The notes under the pieces: generated by a model
The model's input: only the letters and a program-made list of their open reading frames with translations
Databases searched by the model: none
What the model was told of the DNA's origin: nothing
Part shown: one piece after another, positions 41,062 to 56,511 of the stretch
Position numbering within the stretch: the first letter of the stretch is position 1
How the letters are laid out: every line of letters starts with the position of its first letter
Assembly (NCBI GenBank): GCA_045807245.1
Contig: JBJMHS010000061.1
Span: forward strand, 3,054-67,053
DNA from: Actinomycetales bacterium
Lineage (GTDB): Bacteria > Actinomycetota > Actinomycetes > Actinomycetales > CAVURS01
Direction of reading: 5' to 3'
DNA: 64,000 nucleotides
Translations under genes and position numbers: made by a program

Positions 41062-41868
41062 GTGCCTGCCGCGGGGGTCATGGGTTCGCCGATCGCTCAC
41101 TCGCTCTCGCCGGCCCTGCATCTCGCGGCGTACCGCAGCCTCGGCCTGCCCTGGACGTACGTCGCCCGCGAGGTCGACGAGGCGGCGTTGCCCGAGGCGC
41201 TGGCCGGGTTGGGCCCGGACTGGGTGGGGGTCTCACTGACGATGCCGCTGAAGCAGGCCGTGCTGCCGCTGCTCGACGAGGTCAGCGACCTGGCCCGGGA
41301 CGTGGGTGCCGTCAACACGGTGACGTTCGGGCCCGGCGCCTGGCGGTCCGGGGACAACACCGACGTGTACGGGATCACGGCTGCCCTGCGGGCCGCTGGG
41401 GTCGAGGATGGCCGGGGGGCGGTCGTCCTCGGGGGCGGCGCCACCGCCGCATCCGCGGTGGCCGCGCTGCGCGAGCTGGGTGAGCAGACCGCGACGCTCG
41501 TGGTCCGGTCCCGCGAGCGGGCGAGGGGTGTCGAGGCGGCGGCCGAGCGGCTCGGGGTGCGCGTCCGGCTGGCGTCGTGGGACCAGGCCGGCCCGCTGGC
41601 GGCCTGCGCACCCGTCGTGGTCAGCACCGTGCCACCGGGTGCCGCGGACCGGATCCGGCTCAACGTGTCGACGGCCGGGGTGCTGCTGGACGTGGTCTAC
41701 CGCCCGTGGCCGACCGCCCTGGCCGGCGCCTGGCAGCGCGCGGGTGGGGTCGCCGTACCCGGTCTGGAGATGTTGGTGCACCAGGCGGCCGCCCAGGTGA
41801 GGGCCTGGACGGGCGAATGGCCCGATCTGCAGCAAATGATGCGTGCCGCCCAGGCTCAGACCGCCTGA
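41062..41868 (+). CDS. aroE: Shikimate dehydrogenase
   Basis: GSPIAHSLSPALHLAAY, GVSLTMPLK, VNTV...GDNTD and the GGGATAASAV Rossmann motif. GTG at 41062 within the longer ORF. Confidence 0.85.
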   Translation: MPAAGVMGSPIAHSLSPALHLAAYRSLGLPWTYVAREVDEAALPEALAGLGPDWVGVSLTMPLKQAVLPLLDEVSDLARDVGAVNTVTFGPGAWRSGDNTDVYGITAALRAAGVEDGRGAVVLGGGATAASAVAALRELGEQTATLVVRSRERARGVEAAAERLGVRVRLASWDQAGPLAACAPVVVSTVPPGAADRIRLNVSTAGVLLDVVYRPWPTALAGAWQRAGGVAVPGLEMLVHQAAAQVRAWTGEWPDLQQMMRAAQAQTA

Positions 41869-42001
41869 GCGACGGAACGTTGGCAAAGGCTCGTCAAGCC
41901 GGGCGGGCAACGCGCCGATAGGCCATTTGGTGGTCCCCTCCCCGCGTCGCCATGGCGTGGAGGTCAGTCGTGGGACCTGGGGCGGGAGGGGCCAGCAAGC
42001 C

Positions 42002-43660
42002 ATGCAGCTGAGCGACATCTTGCTGAACGACGGCCTCGTCAACGAGACCCAGCTCGCTGCTGCCTACGACGAGCACCAGAAGGACGGCCGCAGCCTCGGA
42101 CGGGTGCTGGTCGACCAGGGCGTGCTGTCGGAGTCGCAGCTGGTCGCGGCTCTGGCCCAGCAGGTCGGTCTGCCGTTCGTCGACCTGACCGAGTACAACG
42201 TCGACGGCTCGGCCATCGGGCGGGTCCCCGGCGGCGTCTGCCGCCGGCACGTGGCCCTGCCGATCGCCTACGAGGACGGCCGCCTGCTCGTGGCGATGGC
42301 CGACCCGGGCAACGTCTTCGCCCTCGACGACTTCCGGTCCATCACCGGCATGGACGTCCGTCCGGTCGTTGCGACCAAGGGCGACGTCCTGGCCGCCATC
42401 GACCGCTACTACCGCGCCGACGCGGACATGGACGACATCACCAGCGCGATGGAGGTCGAGGAGGACGACGACCTCTCCAACGTCCGCGAGGTGGTCGAGG
42501 ACGCCCCGATCGTCAAGTACGTGAACCTGCTCATCACCCAGGCCATCCAGGACCGCGCGTCCGACATCCACATCGAGCCGACCGAGCACGACCTGCGCGT
42601 GCGCTACCGCATCGACGGTGTGCTGCACGAGGTCATGCGCTCGCCGCGTGCGATCCAGTCCGGTGTCACGTCCCGCCTGAAGATCATGGCCGACATCAAC
42701 ATCGCCGAGCGCCGCATCCCCCAGGACGGCCGGCTCTCGGTGAACGCGCACGGCAAGAAGATCGACCTCCGCGTGGCCACGTTGCCGACGGTGTGGGGCG
42801 AGAAGGTCGTCATGCGTGTCCTCGACAACTCGACGGCACGGCTCAGCCTGGACGACCTCGGCTTCGGCGCTTCGAACTACACGCGCTACTCGAAGAGCTT
42901 CACCAAGCCCTACGGGATGATGCTCGTCACGGGCCCGACCGGGTCGGGCAAGTCGACCACGCTGTACGCCACGCTGAACATCGTCAGCAAGCCCGAGGTC
43001 AACGTCATCACGGTCGAGGACCCGGTCGAGTACCGCCTGCCCGGCATCAACCAGGTGCAGACGAACACCAAGGCCGGCCTCACCTTCGCCTCGGCGCTGC
43101 GCTCGATCCTGCGGTCCGACCCCGACGTCGTCCTGATCGGTGAGATCCGTGACCACGAGACGGCACAGATCGCCGTCGAGGCCGCGCTCACCGGTCACCT
43201 CGTGCTCTCCACGCTGCACACCAACGACGCCCCGAGCTCCATCACCCGGCTGACCGAGATGGGCATCGAGCCCTTCCTCGTCGGCTCCGCGCTCGACTGC
43301 GTGCTGGCCCAGCGCCTCACCCGCCGCCTGTGCGACAAGTGCAAGGAGGCCTACCAGCCGGACGCGGAGCTGCTCGAACGGGTGGGTTACCCCTGGACGC
43401 CGGCCGACCAGATCCCCACCCTCTTCCGCGCGGTGGGATGCTCCGCCTGCTCCAAGACGGGCTACAAGGGCCGGATCGCTCTGCACGAGGTCATGGAAGT
43501 GACCGAGGAGATCGAGCGGCTCACCGTCGAGCGCGCCTCGGCGGCGGCCATCGGTGAGATCGCCCGGGCCCAGGGCATGCTCACCCTGCGCCAGGACGGC
43601 ATGTCCAAGGTCGGACAGGGCGTCACCTCCATCGAAGAGATCCTGCGCGTCGTCGTCTGA
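42002..43660 (+). CDS. pilB: Type IV pilus assembly ATPase PilB (GspE family)
   Basis: T2SSE_N-type N-domain, Walker A VTGPTGSGKSTT, Asp box, Walker B VLIGEIRD, His box STLHTNDA, tetracysteine CDKC...CSAC. Confidence 0.92.
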   Translation: MQLSDILLNDGLVNETQLAAAYDEHQKDGRSLGRVLVDQGVLSESQLVAALAQQVGLPFVDLTEYNVDGSAIGRVPGGVCRRHVALPIAYEDGRLLVAMADPGNVFALDDFRSITGMDVRPVVATKGDVLAAIDRYYRADADMDDITSAMEVEEDDDLSNVREVVEDAPIVKYVNLLITQAIQDRASDIHIEPTEHDLRVRYRIDGVLHEVMRSPRAIQSGVTSRLKIMADINIAERRIPQDGRLSVNAHGKKIDLRVATLPTVWGEKVVMRVLDNSTARLSLDDLGFGASNYTRYSKSFTKPYGMMLVTGPTGSGKSTTLYATLNIVSKPEVNVITVEDPVEYRLPGINQVQTNTKAGLTFASALRSILRSDPDVVLIGEIRDHETAQIAVEAALTGHLVLSTLHTNDAPSSITRLTEMGIEPFLVGSALDCVLAQRLTRRLCDKCKEAYQPDAELLERVGYPWTPADQIPTLFRAVGCSACSKTGYKGRIALHEVMEVTEEIERLTVERASAAAIGEIARAQGMLTLRQDGMSKVGQGVTSIEEILRVVV

Positions 43661-43821
43661 CGCCCCTCGCGCTCGGTCGCGAACACGAACGGACTAACCC
43701 GTCCGTCGTACTCAAGCGCCACAGGCAGCAGGCCGATAGCCCATCCGAGGCGGCATGTCCGTCGCCCGACCGACCAGCGAACGAGCTCGCAGCGACAAGG
43801 GTCGCTTACGAGGGGAGACCC

Positions 43822-45081
43822 GTGGACAGCTACGGCCAGTCGAACGGCGCGTACGTGCCCGACAACTACGCGTACACCGCCGACTCGAGCGCAGCGTCCG
43901 CACGGGTGCCGCACCAGGCGGGACCGGCGACCAGCGTGGCCATCGACGAGGACGACATGGACATGGCCGGCGCGTCGTACCGCCGGGCCAGCACGGAGCG
44001 GCGGGCCGAGGTCGGCGACCTGAACCTGCACGACCTGCTGATCACCGTGCTCGACCGCAAGGCGTCCGACCTGCACCTCACCGCTGGCGCACTGCCGACG
44101 CTGCGGATCAACGGCGAGCTCGTCCCGATGGAGGACTTCGAGCCGCTGAGCCCGGCCGAGCTGCAGCGCGTGCTGTTCGCGGCGCTCACCCAGAAGCAGC
44201 GCGAGCGCTTCGAGGCCGAGCTCGAGCTGGACCTGAGCTACTCGGTGCCGGGCAAGGCTCGGTTCCGGGTCAACGTGTACCGCCAGCGTGAGGCGATCGG
44301 GGCGGCCTTCCGCCTGATCCCTTACGAGATCAAGCCACTCGACGCCCTCGGCATCCCGCCGGCGGTCAAGAACTTCTCCGGCCTGCCGCGTGGCCTGGTC
44401 CTCGTGACCGGTCCGACCGGTTCCGGCAAGTCGACGACGCTGGCCGGCCTGATCGACCTGGCCAACCGCACCCGGCACGACCACATCATGACCGTCGAGG
44501 ACCCGATCGAGTTCCTGCACCGCCACAAGTCCTGCCTGGTCAACCAGCGCGAGGTCGGCGAGGACACGCACTCGTTCGCGGCCGCGCTCAAGCACGTGCT
44601 GCGCCAGGACCCGGACATCATCCTGGTCGGTGAGATGCGAGACCTGGAGACGATCTCGGTGGCCCTGACCGCGGCCGAGACCGGCCACCTGGTCTTCGCC
44701 ACCCTGCACACGCAGGACGCCGCCCAGACCATCGACCGCGTCATCGACGTCTTCCCGGCCGAGCAGCAGGAGCAGGTGCGCGCGCAGCTCGCCGGCGCCG
44801 TCCAGGGCGTCGTCTGCCAGACGCTGTGCAAGACGGCCGACGGCAAGGGCCGGGTCGTCGCCACCGAGGTGCTGGTCGCGACGCCGGGCGTCCGCAACCT
44901 GATCCGCGAGGGCAAGACGCACCAGATCTACTCGGCGATGCAGGCCGGCGCCCAGCACGGCATGCACACGCTGGACCAGCACCTCGCCGAGCTGGTCCGC
45001 ACCAACCAGATCACGTACGAACACGGTCTGGAGAAGTGCCACCACGTCGAGGACTTCAACCGCCTGCTCGGCCGGATCTAG
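43822..45081 (+). CDS. pilT: Type IV pilus retraction ATPase PilT
   Basis: ASDLHLTAG, Walker A VTGPTGSGKSTT, ILVGEMRD, FATLHT and the PilT signature PGVRNLIREGK. The GTG 43822 start (SD GAGGGGA) gives a ~66-aa N-terminal extension. Internal ATGs offer a shorter alternative. Confidence 0.92.
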   Translation: MDSYGQSNGAYVPDNYAYTADSSAASARVPHQAGPATSVAIDEDDMDMAGASYRRASTERRAEVGDLNLHDLLITVLDRKASDLHLTAGALPTLRINGELVPMEDFEPLSPAELQRVLFAALTQKQRERFEAELELDLSYSVPGKARFRVNVYRQREAIGAAFRLIPYEIKPLDALGIPPAVKNFSGLPRGLVLVTGPTGSGKSTTLAGLIDLANRTRHDHIMTVEDPIEFLHRHKSCLVNQREVGEDTHSFAAALKHVLRQDPDIILVGEMRDLETISVALTAAETGHLVFATLHTQDAAQTIDRVIDVFPAEQQEQVRAQLAGAVQGVVCQTLCKTADGKGRVVATEVLVATPGVRNLIREGKTHQIYSAMQAGAQHGMHTLDQHLAELVRTNQITYEHGLEKCHHVEDFNRLLGRI

Positions 45082-45105
45082 CCGGACCTAAGAGGAGCTC
45101 CAGCC

Positions 45106-46326
45106 ATGACCATGACGAAGTACGAGTACGCGGTCCGCGACAAGTCCGGCAAGCTCGTCAAGGGCACGCTCGACGCCGAGAACCAGGGCCAGGTCGTCGC
45201 CAAGCTGCGCACGATGGGCTTCGCGCCCGTCAGCATCAGCGAGACGAACTCCGGGATGAAGAAGGAGATCACGATCCCCGGCTTCAGCAACCGGGTGAAG
45301 CTGAAGGACCTGGCGATCATGTCCCGCCAGTTCGCGACCATGATCTCCTCCGGCCTGTCCCTCCTGCGAGCGCTGACCATCCTCGCCGAGCAGACCGAGA
45401 ACAAGGAGCTGGCGCGCGTCCTCGGGCTGGTCCGCTCGGACGTCGAGGCCGGGCAGTCGCTCTCCTCGGCCCTCGCCAAGTTCCCCAAGGTCTTCCCCCC
45501 GCTCATGGTCAACATGTGCCGGGCCGGTGAGGTCGGTGGCTTCCTCGACGGCGTGCTGCTGCAGATCGCGGAGAACTACGAGGCCGAGGTCAAGCTGCGC
45601 GGCAAGATCAAGTCGGCGATGACCTATCCCACCGTGGTGTTCTGCATTGCGATCGTCGCGGTCATCGGCATGCTGCTGTTCATCGTCCCGGTGTTCGCCA
45701 AGATGTTCAAAGACCTGGGCGGTACCTTGCCGGCGCCGACGCGGGTCCTGGTCGAGCTCAGCGCGATCGTGAAGTACGGCTTCCCGTTCATGCTGGTGGG
45801 CGTCATCGCGCTGTTCATCACCTGGCAGCGGGTCAAGCACAAGGACGCTGTCCGGGCGGTCTTCGACCCGTTGAAGCTCAAGGTCCCGGTGTTCGGCAAC
45901 CTGTTCCAGAAGGTCGCGCTGAGCCGGTTCAGCCGCAACCTGGGCACGATGCTTCGTTCCGGCGTACCGATCCTGCAGTCGCTGGACATCGTCGCTTCGA
46001 CCACGGCGAACGTCGTTCTCGAGCGTGCGGTACGCGACGTCCAGGAGAGCGTACGGCGCGGCGAGTCGCTCGCGGGGCCGCTGGCTCAGCACAAGGTGTT
46101 CCCGCCCATGGTCGTCCAGATGCTCGCCATCGGCGAGGACACAGGAGCCATGGACACGATGCTCGAGAAGATCGCCGAGTTCTACGACCAAGAGGTGGAG
46201 GCCACGACCGAGGCGCTGACCAGCCTGATCGAGCCGCTCATGATCGCGGTCCTCGGCAGCATCATCGGGTCGATGATCATCGCCCTCTACATGCCGATCT
46301 TCAAGGTCTTCGACCTCATCAAGTAG
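45106..46326 (+). CDS. pilC: Type IV pilus platform protein PilC (GspF family)
   Basis: 406 aa with two T2SSF repeats (FSRQFATMISSGLSLLRAL; FSRNLGTMLRSGVPILQSL) and 3 TM segments. Confidence 0.92.
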   Translation: MTMTKYEYAVRDKSGKLVKGTLDAENQGQVVAKLRTMGFAPVSISETNSGMKKEITIPGFSNRVKLKDLAIMSRQFATMISSGLSLLRALTILAEQTENKELARVLGLVRSDVEAGQSLSSALAKFPKVFPPLMVNMCRAGEVGGFLDGVLLQIAENYEAEVKLRGKIKSAMTYPTVVFCIAIVAVIGMLLFIVPVFAKMFKDLGGTLPAPTRVLVELSAIVKYGFPFMLVGVIALFITWQRVKHKDAVRAVFDPLKLKVPVFGNLFQKVALSRFSRNLGTMLRSGVPILQSLDIVASTTANVVLERAVRDVQESVRRGESLAGPLAQHKVFPPMVVQMLAIGEDTGAMDTMLEKIAEFYDQEVEATTEALTSLIEPLMIAVLGSIIGSMIIALYMPIFKVFDLIK

Positions 46327-46528
46327 TCGCTCGACTCGGGCCGGAAGAGTGGCCACCCACGCACGGTCACCCTTTCGGCGTAGTCGAAAAAGTCATGACG
46401 ATTGCCCCGTTCGGACGCTCAAGCCCGCGCGGCAGAAGTCGATAAACCACCTGTAAGCGAGCCGTGCCTCCCGAACATGAACCGGGCACCGCGGGCGGCT
46501 CCGTCTCATAACAGAAAGGGAGCAGCAG

Positions 46529-46975
46529 ATGCTCGCTCGCATCCGCAAGTCGATGGAGGAGAAGGACCAGGGCTTCACCCTGATCGAGCTCCTCGTCGTC
46601 ATGATCATCATCGGCATCCTGGCCGCCATCGCGATCCCGGTCTTCTTGAACCAGCGCGCCAAGGCCCGTGACACCTCGACCAAGGCCGACGTGTCCACGC
46701 TGGGTAAGGAGGTCGCGACGTACTTCGTTGACGGCACTGGCACGCTGACCGCGACGCAGGCCGGCGGCGCCGGCACCGACATCACCCTCGGCGACGGTGC
46801 GGCGACCAACCCGTACACCACCGTCATCAAGGTGAGCAACGGTACGACCCTGGGCACCGGCAAGAACCTGAACAGCTCGACCACCTGGTGTGTCGCTCTG
46901 TCCAACGCGAACGGCTCGGTCAAGAACTACTACTACTCGGCTGCCGCTGGCCTCAACGCCGGCACCTGCCCGTGA
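46529..46975 (+). CDS. pilA: Type IV pilin (class III signal peptide), copy 1
   Basis: The leader ends KDQG, then FTLIELLVVMIIIGILAAIAIPVF (Glu5). C-terminal Cys pair (TWCVAL...GTCP). SD AAAGGGAG upstream. A strong hairpin follows. Confidence 0.9.
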   Translation: MLARIRKSMEEKDQGFTLIELLVVMIIIGILAAIAIPVFLNQRAKARDTSTKADVSTLGKEVATYFVDGTGTLTATQAGGAGTDITLGDGAATNPYTTVIKVSNGTTLGTGKNLNSSTTWCVALSNANGSVKNYYYSAAAGLNAGTCP

Positions 46976-46996
46976 TCTAGCGCTTGACCACTACGG

Positions 46997-47023
46997 ATGG
47001 GCGGCCCCTTGCGGGCCGCCCAT
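46997..47023 (+). terminator. Hairpin terminator/attenuator after pilin copy 1
   Basis: Perfect 11-bp stem ATGGGCGGCCC / GGGCCGCCCAT with a 5-nt loop, 22 nt after the stop. Confidence 0.6.
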
Positions 47024-47143
47024 TCGTGCGTCGTAGGCGTGCGCCGCGCGGGTGAGATGTGCCCGTGCGCCCTCAAGGTGCCGAGCGCGCAGCCGACAGA
47101 CACAGCAAGGCCTCCACTTTCCCTGAGCCATGCAGAGGACACG

Positions 47144-47572
47144 ATGCTTCGCAAGAGCCTGCGGGCAACGCGTGACGACGACGGCTTCACCCTGATCGAG
47201 CTGTTGGTCGTCATGATCATCATCGGGATCCTTGCGGCCATCGCCATCCCGGTGTTCCTCAACCAACGGGCCAAGGCCCGTGACACGGCGGTGAAGGCCG
47301 ACGTCTCCCGGTTGGGCAAGGAGGTTGCGACGTACTTCGTCGACGGCACCGGCACCCTGTCGCTGGACTTCGCCTCCACTCCTGGCTCGGTCGTGCTCAT
47401 GGACGGCGCGGCGACGGTCACGACCGTCCAGCTGACCACAGGAACCAGCTCCAGCACGGCCACGGGCCTCGGCCTGCCGACCGGTTGGTGTGTCTCGCTG
47501 ACGAACGCGAGCGGCATGCAGAAGACCTTCCAGTACTCGGCCGCCAGTGGTCTCAAGACCGGCGCCTGCTAA
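47144..47572 (+). CDS. Type IV pilin, copy 2
   Basis: The leader ends RDDDG, then FTLIELLVVMIIIGILAAIAIPVFLNQRAKARDT, identical to copy 1. C-terminal Cys pair (GWCVSL...GAC). The variable middle differs from copy 1. Confidence 0.88.
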   Translation: MLRKSLRATRDDDGFTLIELLVVMIIIGILAAIAIPVFLNQRAKARDTAVKADVSRLGKEVATYFVDGTGTLSLDFASTPGSVVLMDGAATVTTVQLTTGTSSSTATGLGLPTGWCVSLTNASGMQKTFQYSAASGLKTGAC

Positions 47573-47597
47573 CCGGATCGGCGAGAGAGGAACAACC

Positions 47598-48872
47598 GTG
47601 GTCGATCGGCCGCCTCGCGCGGACGAGGGCTTCAGCATGATGGAGGTCCTCGTGGCCGCCATGATCTTCGCCCTTGCCGCGACCGTGCTCGCCGGCGTCT
47701 TCATCAAGACGCTCGGGCTGGCGCAGAGCAACACGCAGCGGACCACCGCTGCGAACCTCGCGACCCAGCAGATGGAGAAGCTGCGCGCCATGGACGCGAC
47801 GCAGATCCCCGACGGTCAGACCACGATCGGTCCGGTCACCGTCGGCGGCACGTCGTACACGCTCACGCAGTACGTCGAGCTCAAGACCCAGGACGGTACG
47901 GCGTGCGTCGGGACCGGCACGGAGCTGACGGCCAAGCAGATCACGGTGCTCGTGACCTGGCCGAACCAGGGCGCCGTGAAGCCGGTCCGCAGCGACACGA
48001 TCCGGACCCTGAACTCGACCGACGACGTGGTCACGGCGTCGAAGGGCGCGTTGGCCGTCACCGTCCAGGCTGCCGACGGCACGGGCACGGCGAGCATCCC
48101 GGTCACGCTCACCACGTCGACCGGCACCTTCGTCCAGACCCTGACGTCGGGTGTCGACGGCTGCGTCGTCTTCACCGGCCTGGCGCCGGGCAGCTACCTG
48201 GCCAACGCCAACACGATGAACTACGTCGACCAGGACGGTGACCAGTCGACGTCGAGTACGGCGCTCGGCGTTACTGCGAACACGATCGCCAAGGGCGTCT
48301 TGCCCTACGACCTGCTAGGCGGCATCGCGATCACACCTCAGACACCGGACGTGAACTACCCGGTCCCGAGCGCCGTCGGCCTCACGCTGACCACCTCGGT
48401 GTGGTCGCCCAGCCAGAACCGGCCGTACGTCACGTGCGTAGGCGCGACCGTGTCGGGTTGTGTGTCCGGGACCTCGCTTCGGAACGCCTCGTCCCTGTTC
48501 CCGGCCAAGTACGGCGCCTGGGCCGGCACCTGCTCGGACGCCGCGACACTGGCCGGCACGCCGACCCTCGCGACGGTCAAGAGCGGGAACACCACGTCGT
48601 ACACCGTGTCGAACTTCGGCCGGGCCCGCGCGGTCATCGGCCCGCTCGTCGTGGGCGGCCCGCACCTGTACGCGGTGCACGCGGCCGACGCGGTCTGCCC
48701 GTCAGGTGAGATCTACGACCTCGGCACGGTCACGGCCGGCCAGACGGTCAACACCGCGCTGCCGTGGGGAACCTGGCGCCTGCAGCTGACCACCACGGGC
48801 GTCCCCACAACGCAGACGGTGAGCCTGTCCAGCGGCGTCTCGTCGCCGCAGACGGTGACGGTGCTCCTATGA
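47598..48872 (+). CDS. Large minor pilin, PilV-like N-domain with C-terminal beta-sandwich extensions
   Basis: Prepilin motif ADEG/FSMMEVLVAAMIFALA (Glu5), then TAANLATQQMEKLRA. A carboxypeptidase-regulatory-like segment VTVQAADGTGTASIPVTL...GCVVFTGLAPGSY follows. ~424 aa. GTG at 47598. Confidence 0.75.
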   Translation: MVDRPPRADEGFSMMEVLVAAMIFALAATVLAGVFIKTLGLAQSNTQRTTAANLATQQMEKLRAMDATQIPDGQTTIGPVTVGGTSYTLTQYVELKTQDGTACVGTGTELTAKQITVLVTWPNQGAVKPVRSDTIRTLNSTDDVVTASKGALAVTVQAADGTGTASIPVTLTTSTGTFVQTLTSGVDGCVVFTGLAPGSYLANANTMNYVDQDGDQSTSSTALGVTANTIAKGVLPYDLLGGIAITPQTPDVNYPVPSAVGLTLTTSVWSPSQNRPYVTCVGATVSGCVSGTSLRNASSLFPAKYGAWAGTCSDAATLAGTPTLATVKSGNTTSYTVSNFGRARAVIGPLVVGGPHLYAVHAADAVCPSGEIYDLGTVTAGQTVNTALPWGTWRLQLTTTGVPTTQTVSLSSGVSSPQTVTVLL

Positions 48873-49561
48873 CCCGCCTGCACTCGGCTCTCCGGCGTGT
48901 CCGGGCCGGTCACGGCTCTCCGGACTCGGGTATGAGCCTCATGGAACTCATCATCGCGATGGCGGTGGCCTCGATCGTGCTGCTCGGTGTCGGCACGTTG
49001 TTCGTCAGCAGCCTTCGTCAGAACCGCACGGTGATGGCGAAGACGACGACCACGGCCGACGCCCGCATCGGCATGGAGGCGATGACGCGTGACCTCCGCG
49101 TCGCGGTCGTTCCCTCGGGTGGCACCAGCCCGTTCAACTCGCCTGTGGGCACACCGGTCAGCTCCTCGCGGATCAGCGTGTACAGCAGCCTGGGTGCCGT
49201 CACGGGCACCACGGACCCGCAGCCGACGCTGGTGACGTTCTACTACGACTCGACGAAGAAGTGCCTGGTCCGGGAGCTGACGCCGTCCAGCGGCTCTCTT
49301 ACGTGGACCTGCATCGCTCGCGGGACCATCAACGCCAGCGGCGACGCGCTCTTCACGTACTACCCCCTTGCGGCGGACGGAACCGTGAGCACCACGCCGT
49401 ACGCCCCCTCGGCCATCACCAGCAACCTCCCGACGATTGCGAGCGTCGCCATCAACCTCCAGGTCAACGACCCCGCCAACCCCTCGGTGCTGCCGACCAA
49501 GCTCCAGGACCAGGTTTCCATGATCAATATCGTCACCGCGCTGCAGGCAGGTGTGTCGTGA
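48869..49561 (+). CDS. Minor pilin, PilW-like
   Basis: Prepilin motif PDSG/MSLMELIIAMAVASIVLLGV (Glu5), then ADARIGMEAMTRDLRVA. ATGA overlap with the upstream stop. Confidence 0.7.
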   Translation: MTRLHSALRRVRAGHGSPDSGMSLMELIIAMAVASIVLLGVGTLFVSSLRQNRTVMAKTTTTADARIGMEAMTRDLRVAVVPSGGTSPFNSPVGTPVSSSRISVYSSLGAVTGTTDPQPTLVTFYYDSTKKCLVRELTPSSGSLTWTCIARGTINASGDALFTYYPLAADGTVSTTPYAPSAITSNLPTIASVAINLQVNDPANPSVLPTKLQDQVSMINIVTALQAGVS

Positions 49562-51159
49562 GAGCTCTCCGCCCGTTCCGGCTCGGTTCCGGCGCTGATG
49601 ACGAGGGCATGGTCCTCGTCGGCGTCATGGGCGCGATGATGGTGCTGTCCGCGTTCGCGCTGGCGACGCTGGGCTACGCGCTGCAGAACTCGCAGCCGAA
49701 CCGCAAGGACCAGGACGCCAAGGCGGCCGTGGCCGCTGCCCAGGCAGGCATCGACGACTACCTGTCGCGGCTCAACAGCGACCCGAGCTACTACACGTTC
49801 ACCGACTCGACCAACGTTGCGTTCACCAGCGGCAAGCCGGCATCCGGCACGGTCGGCCAGGGCGCGACGTTCAAGTACTCAGTCCTGAGCAGCGTCGCCA
49901 CGACGGTGTCGCAGGGCTACATCCGGATCAAGTCCACCGGAACGATGAACGGCGTGACGCGCACCTTGAGCGCGCGGCTGAACCCCAACGGGTTCCTGCA
50001 GTACATCTACCACACGGACAAGGAGGACCAGGACCCCGTCCTGTACTCCGGCGGCAGCGCCACCATCGAGGCGAAGTGCAACCAGTACTACTACTACAGC
50101 TCGGCCACCAAGCCAGGCCGCAGCTCGTACTCGCCGGACCCGTGTCGCGAGATCCAGTTCACGACCGGCGACACGATCAACGGCCCGATGCACACCAACG
50201 ACGCCATGCAGATCAACGGCTCGATCCTCTTTACGAGCCCGAAGACCGAGACTAGCTGGGTCACGGCACAGACCAACAAGTGGTGGGGCTCCGGCACGCC
50301 GAGCACCTCGGGCTACAAGCCGGTCTACGCGGCGCCGGTGCAGATCCCACCGTCGAACGCCAGCCTGCTGGCGAACGCGACGACCGCCGGCTGCGTGTAC
50401 TCGGGAGCCAGCAAGATCACCTTCACCAGCGATGGCAAGATGACGGTGCTCAGCCCGAACACCACGGCGTCGTCGACCTGCTACCCCGCTGGCGCCAACA
50501 AGGCCACCCCAGTCGTCGGGATCACCATCCCACCCGTGATGTACGTGCAGGACTTCAGCGGCACGTGCGCGAAGAACAGCAGCGGCGTGACCATCACGCT
50601 CGGCTACCCGCTCTCGGGCGAGCTTCCGACGACGGACGCGAGCTACACCGGTCCCGACTACTCGTGCAACAAGGGGACCGCGTACGTCTCTGGCACGCTG
50701 AACGGGACGTCGACCATCGGCTCGGCTCAGGACATCGTGGTGGTCAGCAACCTCCTGTACAACGACAAGTCGACGACCAGCGACGACCTGCTCGGCCTGG
50801 TCCCGACCCACTTCATGTGGATCTACCACCCGGTGAACACGAGCGACGCGAACATGCTGAGCACCCCGGTCACGGAGGTCGACGCCGCCATCCTCGCCGT
50901 GTCGGACAGCTTCATCGTCCAGAACTACAACCTCGGAGCGCCCATCTCGTCCGGGTCGACGAACAAGCTCACGGTGTTCGGTGCGATCGCGCAGAACTAC
51001 CGGGGTCCGGTGGGCACCGGTACGACGACCGCGGCCTCGACGGGCTACCTGAAGAACTACAACTACGACACCCGGTTCGCGCGCGGCGCCCAGCCGCCGT
51101 ACTTCCTGCAGCCCGTGTCCACGCAGTGGACCGCCGGCCAGATCAGCGACGGCAACTGA
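49558..51159 (+). CDS. Large PilX_N-like pilus-associated protein (no Glu5)
   Basis: GTGA overlap upstream. N-terminus DDEGMVLVGVMGAMMVLSAFALATLG has Gly at +5. The ~533-aa Ser/Thr/Asn-rich body includes GDTINGPMHTNDAMQINGS. Confidence 0.6.
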   Translation: MRALRPFRLGSGADDEGMVLVGVMGAMMVLSAFALATLGYALQNSQPNRKDQDAKAAVAAAQAGIDDYLSRLNSDPSYYTFTDSTNVAFTSGKPASGTVGQGATFKYSVLSSVATTVSQGYIRIKSTGTMNGVTRTLSARLNPNGFLQYIYHTDKEDQDPVLYSGGSATIEAKCNQYYYYSSATKPGRSSYSPDPCREIQFTTGDTINGPMHTNDAMQINGSILFTSPKTETSWVTAQTNKWWGSGTPSTSGYKPVYAAPVQIPPSNASLLANATTAGCVYSGASKITFTSDGKMTVLSPNTTASSTCYPAGANKATPVVGITIPPVMYVQDFSGTCAKNSSGVTITLGYPLSGELPTTDASYTGPDYSCNKGTAYVSGTLNGTSTIGSAQDIVVVSNLLYNDKSTTSDDLLGLVPTHFMWIYHPVNTSDANMLSTPVTEVDAAILAVSDSFIVQNYNLGAPISSGSTNKLTVFGAIAQNYRGPVGTGTTTAASTGYLKNYNYDTRFARGAQPPYFLQPVSTQWTAGQISDGN

Positions 51160-51207
51160 GCCGCGGGCTCACGCACTGTCAACTCGCACTGACCTAGGCT
51201 GACCGGA

Positions 51208-51987
51208 ATGTGGCTCGTGACGGTGTTCTGCGCCGTCGTCGGGCTGGCGATCGGCTCGTTCCTCAACGTCGTCATCTGGCGCGTGCCGAGGGACGAGTCC
51301 GTCGTCCGGCCGCGGAGCCACTGCCCGTCCTGTGGCAACCCGGTGCGCCCGTACGACGACATCCCGGTCGTCAGCTGGCTCGTGCTGAGGGGCCGCTGTC
51401 GCGACTGCGGCCAGCCGATCAGCATCCGCTACCCGCTCGTCGAAGCCGGGACGGCGGTCCTGTTCGGCGTGACCGCCTGGCATTTCGGGCTGTCGTGGGA
51501 GCTGCCGGCGTACCTCTACCTGATCGCGATAGGCGTCGCCCTCGCGCTCATCGACATCGACGTCCACCGCTTGCCCAACGCGATCGTGCTGCCGTCGTAC
51601 GTGGTCGCACCCGTCCTGCTCACCGTGGCGTCACTGGGTGACGGCGACTGGGCAGCCTTGGTACGAGCCGCGATCGGCGGCGCAGCACTCTACGTCCTGT
51701 ACTTCCTGCTCCGCCTGGCCTACCCGAGCGGCATGGGGTTCGGCGACGTAAAGCTGGCCGGCGTGCTCGGGATGTACCTGGGGTGGCTCGGGTGGGGGCC
51801 GCTCGCCGTAGGAGCCTTCCTCGGGTTCCTGCTCGGCGGCGTCGTCGGTGGTGCGCTGATGGCAGCCAACCGCGCCAGCCGGAAGTCGAAGATCCCGTTC
51901 GGTCCGTTCATGATCGCCGGCGCCTATGTCGCCGTGCTCGTGGGCGCGCAGATCAGCGACCTCTATCTCGACCTGTTCGTGGGCTGA
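51208..51987 (+). CDS. pilD: Prepilin peptidase (A24 family) PilD
   Basis: CPSCGNPV...CRDCGQPI zinc motif, catalytic Asp motifs LIDIDVHRLP and GFGDVKL, multiple TM segments. Confidence 0.93.
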   Translation: MWLVTVFCAVVGLAIGSFLNVVIWRVPRDESVVRPRSHCPSCGNPVRPYDDIPVVSWLVLRGRCRDCGQPISIRYPLVEAGTAVLFGVTAWHFGLSWELPAYLYLIAIGVALALIDIDVHRLPNAIVLPSYVVAPVLLTVASLGDGDWAALVRAAIGGAALYVLYFLLRLAYPSGMGFGDVKLAGVLGMYLGWLGWGPLAVGAFLGFLLGGVVGGALMAANRASRKSKIPFGPFMIAGAYVAVLVGAQISDLYLDLFVG

Positions 51988-52141
51988 ACCGGGGATGTCG
52001 CCCGGCCCGCACACCCGTTCGGCCTAGTCAACGGGCCAATCCGAGCGGTTGTCCTCAAGACCCTTGGGACAGGCACCGATCACCCCTTTGACGCAGCCCT
52101 GCCTGGGCTTTGCGAAGTGTCTTCGCGGAAGGGGATACGAC

Positions 52142-53194
52142 GTGGCTGGACGCACTGCCATCGGTCTCGACATCGGGACCTCCGGCGTTCGCGCGGCCGA
52201 GCTGTCGTTCGGCAAGGGTGGTGTCACTCTCGAGAGGTTCGGCCAGATCGCCGTGCCCGAGGGGGCAGTCCGGGACGGCGAGGTCATCGACACGGCGGCG
52301 GTCGCGCACGCGATCAAGCAGCTGTGGTCGCACACCCGCTTCTCGCACAAGAACGTCATCATGGGCGTGGCCAACCAGCGAGTGATCGTCCGGCAGGTCG
52401 ACCTCCCGTGGATGCCGATCGCCGAGCTGAAGGAGTCCCTGCCCTTCCAGGTCCAGGACTTCCTGCCGATGCCGGTCGACCAGACGCTGCTCGACTTCCA
52501 CCCGCTCGAGGAGGTCCAGGGCGCCGGCGGCGCGCGGCTGCTGAGGGGTCTGCTGGTCGCTGCGGCTCGGGAGATGGTCCTGTCGAACGTCCGCGCGGTC
52601 GAGCAGGCCGGTCTCAAGCCGACGATGGTCGACCTGACGTCGTTCGCGGTCCTGCGGTCGGTGGCCAACATCGGCGTCGTCGACAACGAGATCGAGGCGC
52701 TCGTCGACATCGGCGCGCGCGTGACGAACATCGTCGTGCACAGTGGCGGCGTCCCACACTTCGTCCGGATCCTGCTCATGGGCGGCCAGGACGTCACCGA
52801 CGCGGTGGCGAACAACCTGGGTGTCTCGCACGAAGAGGCCGAGGCGCTCAAGCACGAGCTCGGCAGCGGCTCGCACTCCGACAGCGCCGCTGCGGCCGGC
52901 CGGGTGGCCGACGTCACCGCGGCGACGCTCGTGGACGAGATCCGCGGCTCACTCGACTACTACATGTCCTCGACACCGCACGGTCCCGTCCAGCGGGTCG
53001 TCCTGACCGGCGGTGGCTCACGCCTCCGTGGCCTGGTCGACCGCATGGCCGCGTCCACGCGCGTGCCGGTTGTCGTCGGCGACCCGCTGGGGTCGCTGCA
53101 CCTGGGTCGCACCGGTCTGACGGATGACCAGGTCCGCCATGTCCAGCACCTCGCCGCAGTGCCGGTGGGTCTCGCGCTAGGAGCCTCTTCATGA
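52142..53194 (+). CDS. pilM: Type IV pilus assembly protein PilM (actin-like ATPase fold)
   Basis: IGLDIGTSGVRAAEL...VIMGVANQRVIVRQVDLP...DIGARVTNIVVH...VVLTGGGSRLRGL. GTG at 52142 with SD GGAAGGGGA. Confidence 0.9.
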   Translation: MAGRTAIGLDIGTSGVRAAELSFGKGGVTLERFGQIAVPEGAVRDGEVIDTAAVAHAIKQLWSHTRFSHKNVIMGVANQRVIVRQVDLPWMPIAELKESLPFQVQDFLPMPVDQTLLDFHPLEEVQGAGGARLLRGLLVAAAREMVLSNVRAVEQAGLKPTMVDLTSFAVLRSVANIGVVDNEIEALVDIGARVTNIVVHSGGVPHFVRILLMGGQDVTDAVANNLGVSHEEAEALKHELGSGSHSDSAAAAGRVADVTAATLVDEIRGSLDYYMSSTPHGPVQRVVLTGGGSRLRGLVDRMAASTRVPVVVGDPLGSLHLGRTGLTDDQVRHVQHLAAVPVGLALGASS

Positions 53195-53865
53195 GCCGCA
53201 CGAGTGTCGACTCCGTCGAGTCGCTCGCGACCGGTCGGGCAACGCTGCCCCGGGTCAACCTCCTGCCCCCCGAGGTCCACCAGGCGCGTCAGCTGCGTCG
53301 TCTCCAGGCCGGTCTGGGAGTCGGTGTCGCGGCCGTGGCGCTCGCCGTCGGCGGTTTCTACTTCCTGCAGACGCAGGCTGCCGGCGACGCGCAGGAGAGC
53401 CTGAACCAGGTGGCGGCCAAGGGCTCGACGCTCACCGCGCAGAAGGCGCAGTACGCGCAGGTGCCGAGGACACTGTCCGCGATCGAGGCGGCCGAGTCGG
53501 CCCGGCAGAACGCCATGGCGAACGACGTGCAGTGGTACCGGTACCTCAACGACCTGAGCTACGTCACGCCGAAGAACGCGTGGTTCCTCACGGTGGACAT
53601 CTCGCTGAACCAGTCCGGCGTGGTCAACGTGAACCCGGTGGCCCACGCGTCCATCGCCACGGTCACCGTCACGGGCGCTGCCAAGGTGCACAACGACGTC
53701 GCCTCGTGGTTGAACTCCGCGTCCAAGGAGTCCGGCTGGACGGACGCGTACTTCACCAACTCACAGAAGCAAGACATGAACGGTGAGACCTTCGTCCAGT
53801 TCAGCAGCACCGCGAACGTGACGGACGACGCTCTCTCCCACCGCTACGACCGGAAGGCCGGCTGA
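53191..53865 (+). CDS. pilN: Type IV pilus assembly protein PilN
   Basis: VNLLPPEV motif, one TM segment and a coiled coil. ATGA overlap with the pilM stop. Confidence 0.8.
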   Translation: MSRTSVDSVESLATGRATLPRVNLLPPEVHQARQLRRLQAGLGVGVAAVALAVGGFYFLQTQAAGDAQESLNQVAAKGSTLTAQKAQYAQVPRTLSAIEAAESARQNAMANDVQWYRYLNDLSYVTPKNAWFLTVDISLNQSGVVNVNPVAHASIATVTVTGAAKVHNDVASWLNSASKESGWTDAYFTNSQKQDMNGETFVQFSSTANVTDDALSHRYDRKAG

Positions 53866-53866
53866 C

Positions 53867-54553
53867 ATGTCCAACACCCGACCCTGGATCTTGGGCGCTG
53901 CTGCGCTGAGCGTCCTCTTGGCGGTCGCGGGCTGGTTCCTGCTGATCTCTCCGGAGCGCAGCAAGGCGGCCGACCTCAAGAGCCAGCGCACCGCGCAGGT
54001 CGCCCAGAACCAGCAGCTGCAGCTCGACATCGCGCAGCTGAAGGCCCAGAACGAGAGCCTGCCGGCCAAGCAGGCTGAGCTGGCCAAGATCAAGCAGCAG
54101 CTGCCGAGCAACCCGGCCCTGCCGGCCTTCATCCGCGGTCTGACCTCGATCGCGGGCCAGTCGGGCGCCGGCCTCACCTCGGTGTCCCCGGGCCAGCCCA
54201 TCTCGCTCGCCGCTCAGTCCACTGCTGCCGGTGCGGCGGCAGCGCCGGCCGGTCTGGTGGCGCTCCCTGTCACGGTCGTCGTGGACGGCAGCTACGCGCA
54301 GAGCGAGCTGTTCCTGCAGAAGCTCCAGACGGCGATGACGCGGGCCTTCCTCGTCCAGAAGCTGTCCATCGCAGCGCTCGACACGGGGTCGCTGTCCAAC
54401 AGCACGCCCCCCACGCCGTCCGGCAACCTGCTCCGCACCACGATCAGCGGACAGATCTTCGTGTTGCAGGACCAGGCCGCCGCTGTGAGCGGCGCAGCCG
54501 GTGCGGCGGGAACGCCGTCGGGCACCACCACGACCACCGCACCGGCGAGCTGA
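53867..54553 (+). CDS. pilO: Type IV pilus assembly protein PilO
   Basis: N-terminal TM segment, coiled coil (QLQLDIAQLKAQNESLPAKQAELAKIKQQL), and a C-terminal ferredoxin-like segment VTVVVDGSYAQSELFLQKLQ. Confidence 0.75.
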   Translation: MSNTRPWILGAAALSVLLAVAGWFLLISPERSKAADLKSQRTAQVAQNQQLQLDIAQLKAQNESLPAKQAELAKIKQQLPSNPALPAFIRGLTSIAGQSGAGLTSVSPGQPISLAAQSTAAGAAAAPAGLVALPVTVVVDGSYAQSELFLQKLQTAMTRAFLVQKLSIAALDTGSLSNSTPPTPSGNLLRTTISGQIFVLQDQAAAVSGAAGAAGTPSGTTTTTAPAS

Positions 54554-54564
54554 AGGGCTGACCG

Positions 54565-55239
54565 ATGAGCATCATGAGCGGAACCACACAGACGGCGCCG
54601 GCGCCCCCGGCCCCTCCGGTCGATGAGCCGAAGTCGGCTGCCAACGGTCGGCAGCGGCTGTACCTGCTGGTCGGCGGCGGGCTCGCCCTCGTCGTCGTCG
54701 CAGCTCTTGCGTACTTCTTCCTGCTCAGCGGGTCGGACGACGCGAACACCGGCGCGACCATCGCCCTTCCGGCGCCCAAGGCGTCGGCTAGCCCCAGCGC
54801 GTCCGCCGCGCCGGCCGCGCCGCCGCTGAAGACGTTCGCCGGCCAGACAGCCCGCAACCCGTTCAAGAGCCAGGCCCCCGTGGCCGCCGGCTCCGGCGGC
54901 ACGGGCACCTCCAGCGACGTGGCCAACTCGGGTAACACCGGCACGAGCGGCTCCACAGGCTCCGGCACCGGTACGGCGACCGCGCCGTCCGTCTCGTCCG
55001 TCCCGCTGGTCCTGACCCTGAAGAGCGTCAGTGGCACGTCGGGCGCCACCGTCTGGGTCTACAACAAGAGCACCAAGAAGACGGCGCACTACTCGCCCCA
55101 GATCGGTGACACGTTCGGCACGTACTTCCGCTTGACCGGCTTCCTCACCGACACCAGCTCGGGCGACAAGGCGGCCTTGGTCGAGTACGGCGACACGATC
55201 CTGACGCTGTTCCCGGGGACGTCCTCGACGGTGCAGTAA
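54565..55239 (+). CDS. Membrane-anchored PilP-like protein (functional assignment tentative)
   Basis: One TM segment (LYLLVGGGLALVVVAALAYFFLL), an Ala/Pro/Ser linker with ARNPF (PilP-type R-[DNS]-PF motif), a Gly/Thr/Ser tract, and a C-terminal beta segment ATVWVYNK...PQIGDTFGTYFRLTGF...ALVEYGD. It is the last gene of the pil cluster. Confidence 0.45.
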   Translation: MSIMSGTTQTAPAPPAPPVDEPKSAANGRQRLYLLVGGGLALVVVAALAYFFLLSGSDDANTGATIALPAPKASASPSASAAPAAPPLKTFAGQTARNPFKSQAPVAAGSGGTGTSSDVANSGNTGTSGSTGSGTGTATAPSVSSVPLVLTLKSVSGTSGATVWVYNKSTKKTAHYSPQIGDTFGTYFRLTGFLTDTSSGDKAALVEYGDTILTLFPGTSSTVQ

Positions 55240-55276: not shown

Positions 55277-55319
55277 AGCATGAGGCCGATCCTCCACATG
55301 GGAGGATCGGCCTCATGCT
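55277..55319 (+). other. Perfect 19-bp hairpin covering the aroC SD and start codon (possible pil-operon terminator / translational occluder)
   Basis: AGCATGAGGCCGATCCTCC - ACATG - GGAGGATCGGCCTCATGCT. The right arm contains GGAGGA and the aroC ATG (55315). A smaller hairpin GTCCGG/CCGGAC lies at 55251-55272. Confidence 0.7.
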
Positions 55320-56511
55320 TCGCTGGATCACCGCGGGCGAGTCGCACGGACCCGCGCTGGTCGCGGTGCTGGAAGGCCTCCCGGCCGACGTCGCCGTCAC
55401 GACCGACGTCGTCGCGGCAGCGCTCGCCCGTCGACGCCTCGGGTACGGCCGCGGGGCGCGGATGTCGTTCGAGCAGGACGTCGTCGAGCTGACCGGCGGG
55501 GTCCGGCACGGCCGGACGATGGGCGGCCCGGTCGCCATCAGGGTGGGCAACAGCGAGTGGCCCAAGTGGGAGCTCGTGATGAGTGCGGACCCGGTGCCGG
55601 AGGATGAGCTCGCCGACCTCGCGCGCAACGCGCCGCTGACCAGGCCACGTCCCGGTCACGCCGATCTGGTGGGGATGCAGAAGTACGGGTTCGACGACGC
55701 CCGGCCGGTGCTCGAGCGGGCCAGTGCGCGCGAGACTGCGGCACGGGTCGCCCTCGGCTCGGTCGCCTCTGCGTTCCTCGACCAGGCGTTCGGCATCCGT
55801 CTGGTCTCCCACACGGTCTCGGTGGGTTCGGCGGCCGTGGACGACGGCGCCGAGCTCCCGACGCCGGGGGACGTCGACGCGCTGGACAGGGACCCGCTCC
55901 GGGCGTTCGACGCGGCCGGCTCGGCCCGTATGGTCGAGGAGGTCGAGGCGGCCCGTCGCGACGGGGACACCTTGGGTGGTGTGGTCGAGGTGCTGGCGTA
56001 CGGCCTGCCGCCGGGTCTGGGCAGCCACGTGCACTGGGACCGGCGCCTGGACTCGCGCCTGGCGGGTGCGCTGATGGGCATCCAGGCCATCAAGGGCGTC
56101 GAGGTCGGCGACGGGTTCCGCACCGCGGCCCGGCGGGGCTCGCAGGCCCACGACGAGATCGAGCGCGGACCGGACGGGGCGCTCCGGCGCCGGTCCGGAC
56201 GCGCGGGCGGCACCGAGGGCGGCATGTCGACCGGCGACGTGCTGCGCGTCCGTGCTGCGATGAAGCCCATCTCCACCGTGCCGCGCGCGTTGGACACGGT
56301 GGACGTCACGAGCGGCGAACCGGCCAAGGCGATCAACCAGCGGTCCGACGTGTGCGCCGTACCCGCTGCGGGTGTCGTGGCCGAGGCGATGGTCGCGCTG
56401 GTGCTGGCCGACGCCTGTCTGGAGAAGTTCGGCGGCGACTCGGTGGCGGAGAGCGCTCGCAACTGCCGGACCTACCTGGAGTGCCTGCCGGAAGCGCTGA
56501 GGGCACGGTGA
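55315..56511 (+). CDS. aroC: Chorismate synthase
   Basis: [32 protein letters not shown], and the GGMSTG segment. Confidence 0.96.

Follow-up and report, generated by a model that had tools for sequence, protein, structure and literature searches.

The stretch of DNA analysed here (hereafter the window) comprises 64,000 nucleotides of contig JBJMHS010000061.1, has a GC content of ~72% and belongs to a metagenome-assembled genome (MAG) of the Actinomycetota. On its + strand, between 41.8 and 54.6 kb, Pfam and NCBIfam searches identify a complete Gram-positive type IVa pilus (T4aP) cluster in the order pilB-pilT-pilC-pilA1-pilA2-G1-G2-G3-pilD-pilM-pilN-pilO. Our main focus is on the three genes named G1, G2 and G3. 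G1 runs from a GTG at 47598 to 48872 (424 aa), G2 from an ATG at 48869 to 49561 (230 aa) and G3 from a GTG at 49558 to 51159 (533 aa). We annotate G1 as an I-type (PilV/GspI-like) modular minor pilin, G2 as a plain minor pilin, probably of the J type, and G3 as a K-type cap pilin of the ComZ or beta-solenoid PilX kind. An earlier note, made from the sequence alone, had described three minor pilin genes in this place joined by ATGA and GTGA overlaps, and the sequence confirms it: the 4-nt overlaps ctcctATGAccc and gtgtcGTGAgag are present, ATGA at 48869–48872 (G1/G2) and GTGA at 49558–49561 (G2/G3). These overlaps suggest that translation of the three genes is coupled.

The three open reading frames (ORFs) have the composition of genuine genes. 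GC content at third codon positions (GC3) is 0.89–0.94 in G1, G2 and G3, and 0.88–0.98 in each 300-nt sub-window of G1 and G3. As judged by their normal Shannon entropy, the long extensions of G1 and G3 are not low-complexity. The G1 sequence recurs at 100% identity in an 'Actinomycetales bacterium' MAG, as a 424-aa protein called by NCBI, G3 has full-length homologues at 85–91% identity, and full-length homologues range from >90% down to ~25% identity across many genera. Because GC3 is uniform, entropy is normal and homologues are full-length, we take the extensions to be true coding sequence rather than read-through.

All three products carry class III signal peptides (a slash marks the cleavage site): MVDRPPRADEG/FSMMEV in G1, with a leader of 11 aa; GSPDSG/MSLMEL at the end of the 21-aa leader of G2; and GADDEG/MVLVGV at the end of the 17-aa leader of G3. 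In each case a short charged leader ending in Gly precedes the ~20-aa hydrophobic segment alpha1N, as is typical of pilins, and the AlphaFold2 (AF2) models of G1 and G3 begin with long predicted helices. The TIGR02532 model scores above its cut-off of 16.3 for G1 (18.7) and G2 (22.2), and Pfam N_methyl matches G2 above its cut-off of 21.2 bits (24.2 bits) and G1 just under it (20.1 bits). The prepilin peptidase and assembly genes (pilD, pilB, pilT, pilC, pilM, pilN and pilO) are co-encoded with G1–G3, and when all six frames of the 64 kb are scanned by motif, no more than five signal peptides of pilin type emerge, those of pilA1, pilA2, G1, G2 and G3. The pilin identity proposed in the earlier note thus holds for all three proteins. 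Glu is found at position +5 of G1 (FSMME) and G2 (MSLME), but not of G3 (MVLVG), where Gly takes its place, as had been claimed. The absence of Glu5 from G3 is as expected of a capping K-type subunit. It extends to the 63 close relatives of G3, in which Gly occupies −1 in 60 of the 60 sequences that have a residue at that column, and the listed residues at +5 are T (21), A (15), G (9), S (9), V (3) and M (3), never Glu.

The AF2 model of G3 is confident over the whole protein (mean predicted local distance difference test, pLDDT, 91.3; predicted TM-score, pTM, 0.86; isoelectric point, pI, 6.1) and falls into three parts. The pilin module (49609–50037, residues ~18–160) consists of the alpha1 helix (16–74) and strands between residues 104 and 158, and holds an AAAQAGIDDY motif of PilX_N type. 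It is followed by an inserted beta-rich body (50050–51117, residues ~165–520; pLDDT mostly >90), predicted to be a beta-solenoid, with short strands from about residue 200 to 503 and six cysteines (174, 196, 279, 308, 337 and 370) that are all invariant or nearly so. The last part is a single beta-strand (51127–51153, residues 524–532). This order of elements (helix, sheet strands, beta-rich body, final strand) fits a solenoid inserted between the penultimate and last strands, and suggests that strand 524–532 returns to the pilin sheet as in ComZ.

ComZ of Thermus thermophilus is also what structure and profile searches retrieve. In a Foldseek search of the PDB with G3, its three chains (6QVI) are the sole significant match (threshold E<=0.001), with E-values of 4e-8 to 6e-7 and probability 1.00; sub-threshold matches include beta-helix proteins such as HpmA and SRRP. 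The close-family profile of G3 (A1) finds nothing among PDB sequences even at E<=10. Once more distant relatives (Omnitrophota, Balneolaceae, Eisenbacteria and others) are added to the profile (A4), ComZ comes first of 177,635 PDB sequences, with E = 0.0023; positions 42–140 of the profile align to ComZ residues 7–129, that is, to the pilin module with its common A-x-AEAG-type helix motif. G3 itself has no Pfam or NCBIfam match, and so none to the PilX_N named in the earlier note. Part of its family does match: PilX_N (PF14341) is found in 10 and DUF4900 (PF16241) in 7 of the 63 close relatives and, once distant relatives are added, DUF4900 in 15/29 (best 1.5e-11) and PilX_N in 10/29. By transitive homology, G3 would therefore belong to the PilX_N/DUF4900 families. 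In the literature, the name DUF4900 came up in a single paper, on an unrelated subject. [quoted passage not shown] G3 would do the work of a K subunit while standing outside the GspK family.

The nearest named relatives of G3 are in Kineosporiaceae, Angustibacter, Kineococcus and Quadrisphaera, at ~38–43% identity. Further away, loci L030–L049 (Omnitrophota, Balneolaceae, Eisenbacteria, Ratteibacteria, Verrucomicrobiia and Vulcanimicrobiota) encode shorter proteins, of ~410–510 aa, that combine a PilX_N-type N-terminus with a body homologous to G3 residues ~199–516, and some of them adjoin pilB, pilC or pilM. Because these homologues lie in several diderm and candidate phyla, the ComZ/DUF4900-type solenoid cap appears to be far more widely spread than the two phyla in which it has been described.

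G1 is built differently. Its mature form has 413 aa, a mass of 42 kDa and a pI of 5.3, and the AF2 model (pLDDT 87.3, pTM 0.74) separates a pilin module (47631–48017, residues ~12–140; alpha1 helix 14–64 and a four-stranded sheet) from a C-terminal extension (48033–48869, residues ~146–424) of two to three Ig-like or prealbumin-like beta-sandwich domains. The extension has a pLDDT of mostly 85–95, cysteines at 189, 280, 288, 312 and 367, and a DG..F..L.PG.Y-type motif at residues 187–200. For the pilin module we used the I-type models TIGR02523 (PilV) and TIGR01707/NF047828 (GspI/XpsI). The PilV model matches G1 with E = 2.2e-6 and 28.2 bits against a cut-off of 52.2, and the XpsI/GspI model with E = 5.6e-4, also below its curated cut-off, aligning residues 11–136 to profile positions 3–125 of 132. 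The same pattern is seen in the family, where PilV matches 44 of 48 members (best 7.3e-11) and GspI 18 of 48, below the curated cut-offs; some members also weakly match the HpsB pseudopilin model. By best match, then, G1 is a probable I-type pilin, at sub-threshold scores on the curated models.

The earlier note had seen a carboxypeptidase-regulatory-like domain in the extension. A match does lie at residues 152–213, and many G1 homologues carry PF13620 or PF17210 in precomputed annotation. In G1 itself, however, both CarboxypepD_reg (16.4 bits) and SdrD_B (23.5 bits) stay below threshold over this segment. The structural comparison is clearer: Foldseek matches the extension first to TIE of B. 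anthracis (6e-11) and then to PitA, SdrD, BcpA, GBS52 and SpaA (E to 1e-4), so that the model confidently predicts an Ig-like/CnaB-type fold like that of Gram-positive adhesin stalks. With a pilin module (12–140) fused to beta-sandwich domains (146–424), G1 has the make-up by which modular pilins are defined (sensu Raynaud et al. 2021). A pilin joined to PF13620, a domain classed as a 'carbohydrate-binding-like fold', is among the 15 commonest modular-pilin architectures (PMC8179133).

We also considered whether G1 could be a sortase pilin, and ruled this out: it has a class III signal peptide, its C-terminus reads TVTVLL and lacks a sortase sorting motif, and its invariant columns contain no set of Lys, Asn or Asp residues able to form an isopeptide bond. 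Because of this signal and the missing sorting motif, G1 would be assembled by the type IV pilus (T4P) route, and has only the fold in common with the stalks of sortase pili and MSCRAMMs (microbial surface components recognizing adhesive matrix molecules; CnaB, SdrD-B and prealbumin-like domains of TIE, PitA, BcpA, GBS52 and SpaA).

G2 is the simplest of the three, with a mature length of 209 aa. Beyond the N-terminal signal models, its matches are confined to the N-terminal ~60 residues: PRK10557 (4.5e-5), HpsC (1.3e-4), GspJ (2.8e-3) and Verru_Chthon cassette protein C, all far below cut-offs. J-class models are the commonest weak matches among its relatives. The G2 family profile finds nothing among PDB sequences beyond generic N-terminal helix matches to major pilins. 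At 24 related loci, a pilin of ~200–290 aa with a Gx[ST]L[IV]E-type site (cleavage after the Gly) lies directly upstream of the G3 orthologue. Its position between an I-type and a K-type gene, together with the weak N-terminal matches, makes a J-type (GspJ/PilW-like) assignment plausible.

The earlier note had called two of these pilins unusually large. Here the wider comparison tells against it. We scanned one genome per species and obtained 49 loci, 29 of them from Actinomycetota. The G1–G3 pair is detected at 27 of these 29, with a G2-type pilin between the two at 24. Within Actinomycetota, Cellulomonas fimi, Sanguibacter, Leifsonia, Homoserinimonas, Homoserinibacter, Agrococcus, Curtobacterium and Modestobacter have the full order pilB-pilT-pilC-pilA-G1-G2-G3-pilD-pilM(NO), often with aroC next, and the G1-G2-G3 block is also found in Solirubrobacterales, Thermoleophilaceae, Patulibacter and Acidimicrobiia. 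G1 orthologues mostly have 381–620 aa in mature form and Glu at +5; G3 orthologues have 498–611 aa, likewise in mature form, and, at the related loci where the signal was found, never Glu at +5. A value of 730 aa at locus L027 was left out of these ranges, as it is the mis-parsed signal of the upstream G2-type pilin. In a HMMER scan of 1.84 billion 50%-identity representatives, the G1 profile retrieves 1,606 proteins with E<=1e-30. Of the top 150, ~130 have 400–510 aa and match the whole profile, whereas the full set also contains giant repeat proteins aligned to the beta-sandwich part only. Judged by these homologues, the large sizes of G1 and G3 are the norm for a conserved module.

The statement of the earlier note that no PilY1-like gene is present is borne out in the 64-kb window. 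All genes from pilB to aroC are accounted for, none being a large non-pilin with a C-terminal beta-propeller, and the ten ORFs that we scanned, including the largest credible coding ones, do not resemble PilY1 (GcvP, SbcC, SbcD, AlaS, a GCS2-family protein, MgsA, YceG/MltG, two phosphoesterases and one 224-aa protein without a family). The six-frame motif scan of the window also finds no fourth, H-type (FimU/GspH) minor pilin.

Considering these results, we think it likely that the trio corresponds, in gene order, to the minor pilins I (PilV/GspI), J (PilW/GspJ) and K (PilX/GspK/ComZ) forming the priming and tip complex of a Gram-positive retractile T4aP. Gene structure, signal peptides, predicted folds, homology, synteny and phylum-wide conservation all form the observed basis of this reading. 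PilD would cleave G1, G2 and G3, which would then assemble in the membrane through their N-terminal helices, and the trimer would nucleate polymerisation of PilA1 and PilA2, so that the complex ends at the distal tip. G3 would be the cap: without Glu5 it could not neutralise a further subunit on top, and a beta-solenoid of ~350 aa should be too bulky for the shaft. G1 would sit beneath or beside G3 and project a rigid stalk of Ig-like beta-sandwich domains. The additional modules of G1 and G3 could then form the exposed tip and replace the plug and ligand role that the non-pilin PilY1/PilC has in diderms. The 4-nt overlaps may help to produce matched amounts of the three subunits, and a hairpin upstream, described below, probably lowers read-through from the major pilin gene. 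As for activity, binding to surfaces or polysaccharides would be most likely, with DNA as an alternative.

A priming or tip role agrees with models published for other systems (PMC6561018, 10.64898/2026.02.12.705559, PMC9934059). Core minor pilins of the GspIJK and PilVWX kinds form priming complexes (PMC9934059). The trio resembles GspI-GspJ-GspK of the T2SS and PilV-PilW-PilX of Pseudomonas and Neisseria T4aP in its I-J-K order, in a K subunit that lacks Glu5 and has an inserted domain, and in its proposed priming and tip role. It differs from them in that the H-type (GspH/FimU) gene is absent, and diderm systems add PilY1; furthermore, the GspK insert is alpha-helical and at a different position, and proteobacterial PilX is small. 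None of G1, G2 and G3 reaches the curated cut-offs of the corresponding I, J or K models. The I/J/K-like assignment suggested earlier is nevertheless supported, weakly in the case of G2.

A close parallel is the ComZ/PilA2 pair of Thermus. ComZ is a GspK-like pilin with Gly at +5 and a ~380-residue triangular beta-solenoid inserted between the last strand and the one before it; its binding partners are the GspI-like PilA2 and double-stranded DNA (dsDNA), and it can fit at the pilus tip only (PMC6561018). G3 and ComZ thus have in common the Gly at +5, the GspK-like module, the large beta-solenoid and the final strand after it, and just as ComZ, argued to be a tip cap, is encoded beside a GspI-like pilin, G3 is adjacent to the set containing G1. 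However, their sequence identity is ~11–13%, the ComZ host is a diderm with a secretin whereas the G3 host is a monoderm, and ComZ is part of a competence-specific pilin set and binds DNA whereas G3 shows no evident connection with DNA. Where G1 has ~280 aa of Ig-like domains, PilA2 has a small subdomain.

Similar cap pilins are described for cyanobacteria, where all PilX proteins have a ComZ-like architecture and the solenoid has been proposed to replace the PilY1 plug in organisms without PilY1 (bioRxiv 10.64898/2026.02.12.705559). Compared by description, PilX-Com and PilX-EPS/HpsA (EPS, exopolysaccharide) resemble G3, a probable cap, in being cap pilins without Glu5, in a triangular beta-solenoid inserted between the penultimate and last strands, which the order of elements makes probable for G3, in their strict co-occurrence with a PilV-type partner and in occurring in organisms without PilY1, where the solenoid is the proposed substitute. 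Members of the G2 and G1 families weakly match the HpsC and HpsB pseudopilin models, respectively. Cyanobacteria have several specialised sets, in another phylum and with another envelope, whereas the window has a single set.

Among monoderms, in which PilY1 is absent, the tip complex of Streptococcus sanguinis is made of the modular pilins PilABC (PMC9934059). This T4aP, too, has exactly five pilins (two majors ~60–85% identical and three minor ones) and no PilY1, and an I-like subunit with bulky modular pilins is its proposed tip. Its modules are a vWA domain and a ConA-type lectin, unlike the beta-solenoid and Ig-like stalk found here, and the modules of the two sets have no sequence homology. 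The subunit without Glu5 is the small I-like PilA in S. sanguinis and the large K-like G3 in our cluster.

Several points weigh against the proposed tip complex. We infer complex formation, tip location, assembly order and ligand, and the arguments for interaction, order and location are by analogy; for binding of G3 to the I-type G1, the support seen here is their co-occurrence at 27 of 29 Actinomycetota loci. The Foldseek TM-score between G3 and ComZ is 0.22–0.28, with a root-mean-square deviation of ~17 A at 0.28, so the two resemble each other in architecture and over local stretches and do not superpose as rigid bodies. The J-type assignment of G2 is weak, with matches covering the N-terminal ~60 residues at scores under the curated cut-offs, and a Pfam scan of 25 G2 relatives finds N_methyl alone and no PilW or T2SS-J match; the PilW-like label of the earlier note agrees with gene order and with the J-class models being the best weak matches, but goes no further. 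Without an H-type adapter, the complex either differs from the canonical four-pilin set or has a major-pilin paralogue as a substitute. The absence of PilY1 covers 64 kb only. Finally, G1 (pI 5.3) and G3 (pI 6.1) are both acidic.

The last point bears on an alternative in which G3 and G1 bind dsDNA at the tip and the pilus serves mainly for DNA uptake in natural transformation. ComZ, the only significant structural and profile match of G3 and its only relative with a solved structure, binds both DNA and its GspI-like partner PilA2 (PMC6561018), a competence-linked PilX/PilV subfamily of like fold exists in cyanobacteria (10.64898/2026.02.12.705559), and the presence of PilT means that the pilus can retract. 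However, the beta-solenoid fold also serves cyanobacterial motility and EPS pili, so fold does not predict DNA binding. The lysine in the YKD segment of ComZ, which may be the DNA-protected K98 (the offset in chain numbering is uncertain), aligns to a Ser in G3; G3 and G1 are acidic; and the ORFs of the window that we scanned include no com gene. We therefore consider a DNA receptor unlikely, and a surface- or polysaccharide-binding tip remains our preferred reading.

Somewhat less likely again is a complex that only primes assembly, in which the extra domains are structural (a plug or a cell-wall spacer), bind no ligand and leave adhesion to the major pilins. Core minor pilins are mainly primers in all type IV filaments studied (PMC9934059), domains of the CnaB/SdrD-B type are usually stalks rather than binding modules, and a long stalk could help to cross a thick Gram-positive wall. 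Yet ~280 and ~350 extra residues are kept phylum-wide, with invariant cysteines and many invariant surface-type residues, which is much for a passive spacer, and in every modular tip pilin studied (PilB, PilC, ComZ and CofB) the module binds something (PMC8179133). The remaining idea, that wrong start or stop calls or low-complexity read-through have inflated what are truly small pilins, draws on the long spurious ORFs common in a ~70% GC genome and on the many overlapping antisense ORFs listed here, but we reject it as next to impossible, given a GC3 of 0.88–0.98 over the entire length of the genes, full-length homologues down to 25–30% identity in many genera, normal entropy and confident folded models across the extensions. 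The earlier note had itself named such an artefact as one outcome that would undo its proposal; the domain and Foldseek matches and the high pLDDT indicate instead that the extensions are real and folded.

Returning to the priming and tip complex, it is tempting to speculate that in Actinomycetota the I-type pilin has gained a rigid Ig-like stalk of several domains, of the kind known from sortase pili and MSCRAMMs, which packs on the beta-solenoid of the K cap to form a composite adhesin and plug that is independent of PilY1 and has its own ligand, for example a plant or microbial polysaccharide. We hold this as a possibility on the doubtful side; if it is true, the composite stalk-solenoid tip would be an architecture distinct from those of Thermus, cyanobacteria and streptococci. 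Short of that, a pil cluster conserved across the phylum would use a minor-pilin set reduced to I, J and K, in which the cap is of ComZ type and the I subunit bears an Ig-like stalk, which would extend to Actinomycetota the idea, drawn from Thermus, cyanobacteria and streptococci, that modular tip pilins stand in for PilY1. The design is already known from Thermus, cyanobacteria and Streptococcus, and our reading restates models published for other phyla and adds no new principle; it is a useful annotation and an entry point to an unstudied pilus system rather than a surprise, and it gives concrete targets for finding out what these bacteria of soil, plants and water use their pili to bind. 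We found no paper on the minor pilins of actinobacterial T4aP; the literature that we did find goes no further than the pili of Actinoplanes zoospores and the predicted regulation of other pilus clusters in actinobacteria.

The rest of the cluster, all on the + strand, is that of a retractile pilus. It is preceded by alaS and mltG/yceG, that is, by a housekeeping neighbourhood, and opens with the extension ATPase gene pilB (41843–43660), whose product matches Pfam T2SSE (3.9e-142) and MshEN (6.8e-24, residues 109–193). The MshEN type of domain binds c-di-GMP in MshE. Its occurrence in PilB is in line with the c-di-GMP/WhiG control reported for T4P clusters of actinobacteria (PMC12871210). The retraction ATPase gene pilT (43822–45081; 419 aa as listed) has its T2SSE match (7.3e-45) at residues 184–395. 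Matches to pilT in related genomes by tblastn mostly begin at residues 63–76, a few at 9–19; because homology in most relatives starts so late, the pilT start has probably been called too far upstream, and the true start would lie ~60–70 codons downstream. The platform protein gene pilC (45106–46326) matches T2SSF in two stretches (3.8e-67).

Two major-type pilin genes follow. The product of pilA1 (46529–46975; signal KDQG/FTLIEL) matches N_methyl with 1.1e-9, and the GspG and PilA models match its N-terminus; that of pilA2 (47144–47572), a second major-type paralogue, matches N_methyl with 1.5e-9, and its gene ends 25 nt upstream of G1. The two are 62% identical overall, and in the aligned segment that begins at the −1 Gly they agree in 45 of 46 residues. 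This tandem pair resembles PilE1/PilE2 of S. sanguinis, which form heteropolymeric pili. In several related genomes, tblastn finds a single pilA-like match.

Between pilA1 and pilA2, RNA folding reveals a stem-loop at 46980–47040 on the + strand (−42.7 kcal/mol, z = −4.6, none of 200 shuffles as stable). It has no U-tract and was found by direct folding, having been missed by a consensus scan for promoters and terminators of 46200–51400, which returned no promoters and terminator-like sites at chance level. Placed ahead of pilA2 and the minor pilin genes, this hairpin probably acts as a terminator or attenuator and thereby determines how the transcripts of major and minor pilins are proportioned.

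Downstream of G3, pilD (51208–51987) starts after 48 nt and encodes the prepilin peptidase (A24_N_bact 1.9e-37, Peptidase_A24 4.5e-12), which would process all five pilins. The alignment subcomplex pilMNO (52049–54553) comprises pilM (52049–53194; PilM_2 3.8e-52), pilN (53191–53865) and pilO (53867–54553); the last two have weak PilM-like (Amuc_1101 family) and GspM-type matches, and the three genes are syntenic in relatives. A gene for a 224-aa protein without a family (54565–55239) separates pilO from aroC (55315–56511). This protein has one N-terminal membrane helix, a long low-complexity linker rich in Ala, Pro, Ser, Gly and Thr, and a small beta-rich C-terminal domain. It gives no Pfam match and weak NCBIfam matches, and may be a PilP-like or wall-spanning accessory of the monoderm machine.

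Base composition sets the pil cluster apart: from 42000 to 54000, GC is 0.655–0.684, 4–6 points below the flanks (~0.72), and GC skew is negative. Because GC3 stays at ~0.9, the drop comes from codon positions 1 and 2, that is, from secreted proteins rich in Thr, Ser, Asn and Ala, and is not obviously a sign of recent transfer. Phylum-wide synteny with aroC argues for vertical descent of the cluster. Elsewhere in the window, two adjacent paralogous genes of the phosphoesterase family (PF04185, phospholipase C/acid phosphatase type) lie on the minus strand at 13862–14812 and 14876–15889, and the segment around them is also locally lower in GC, at 0.68–0.69.

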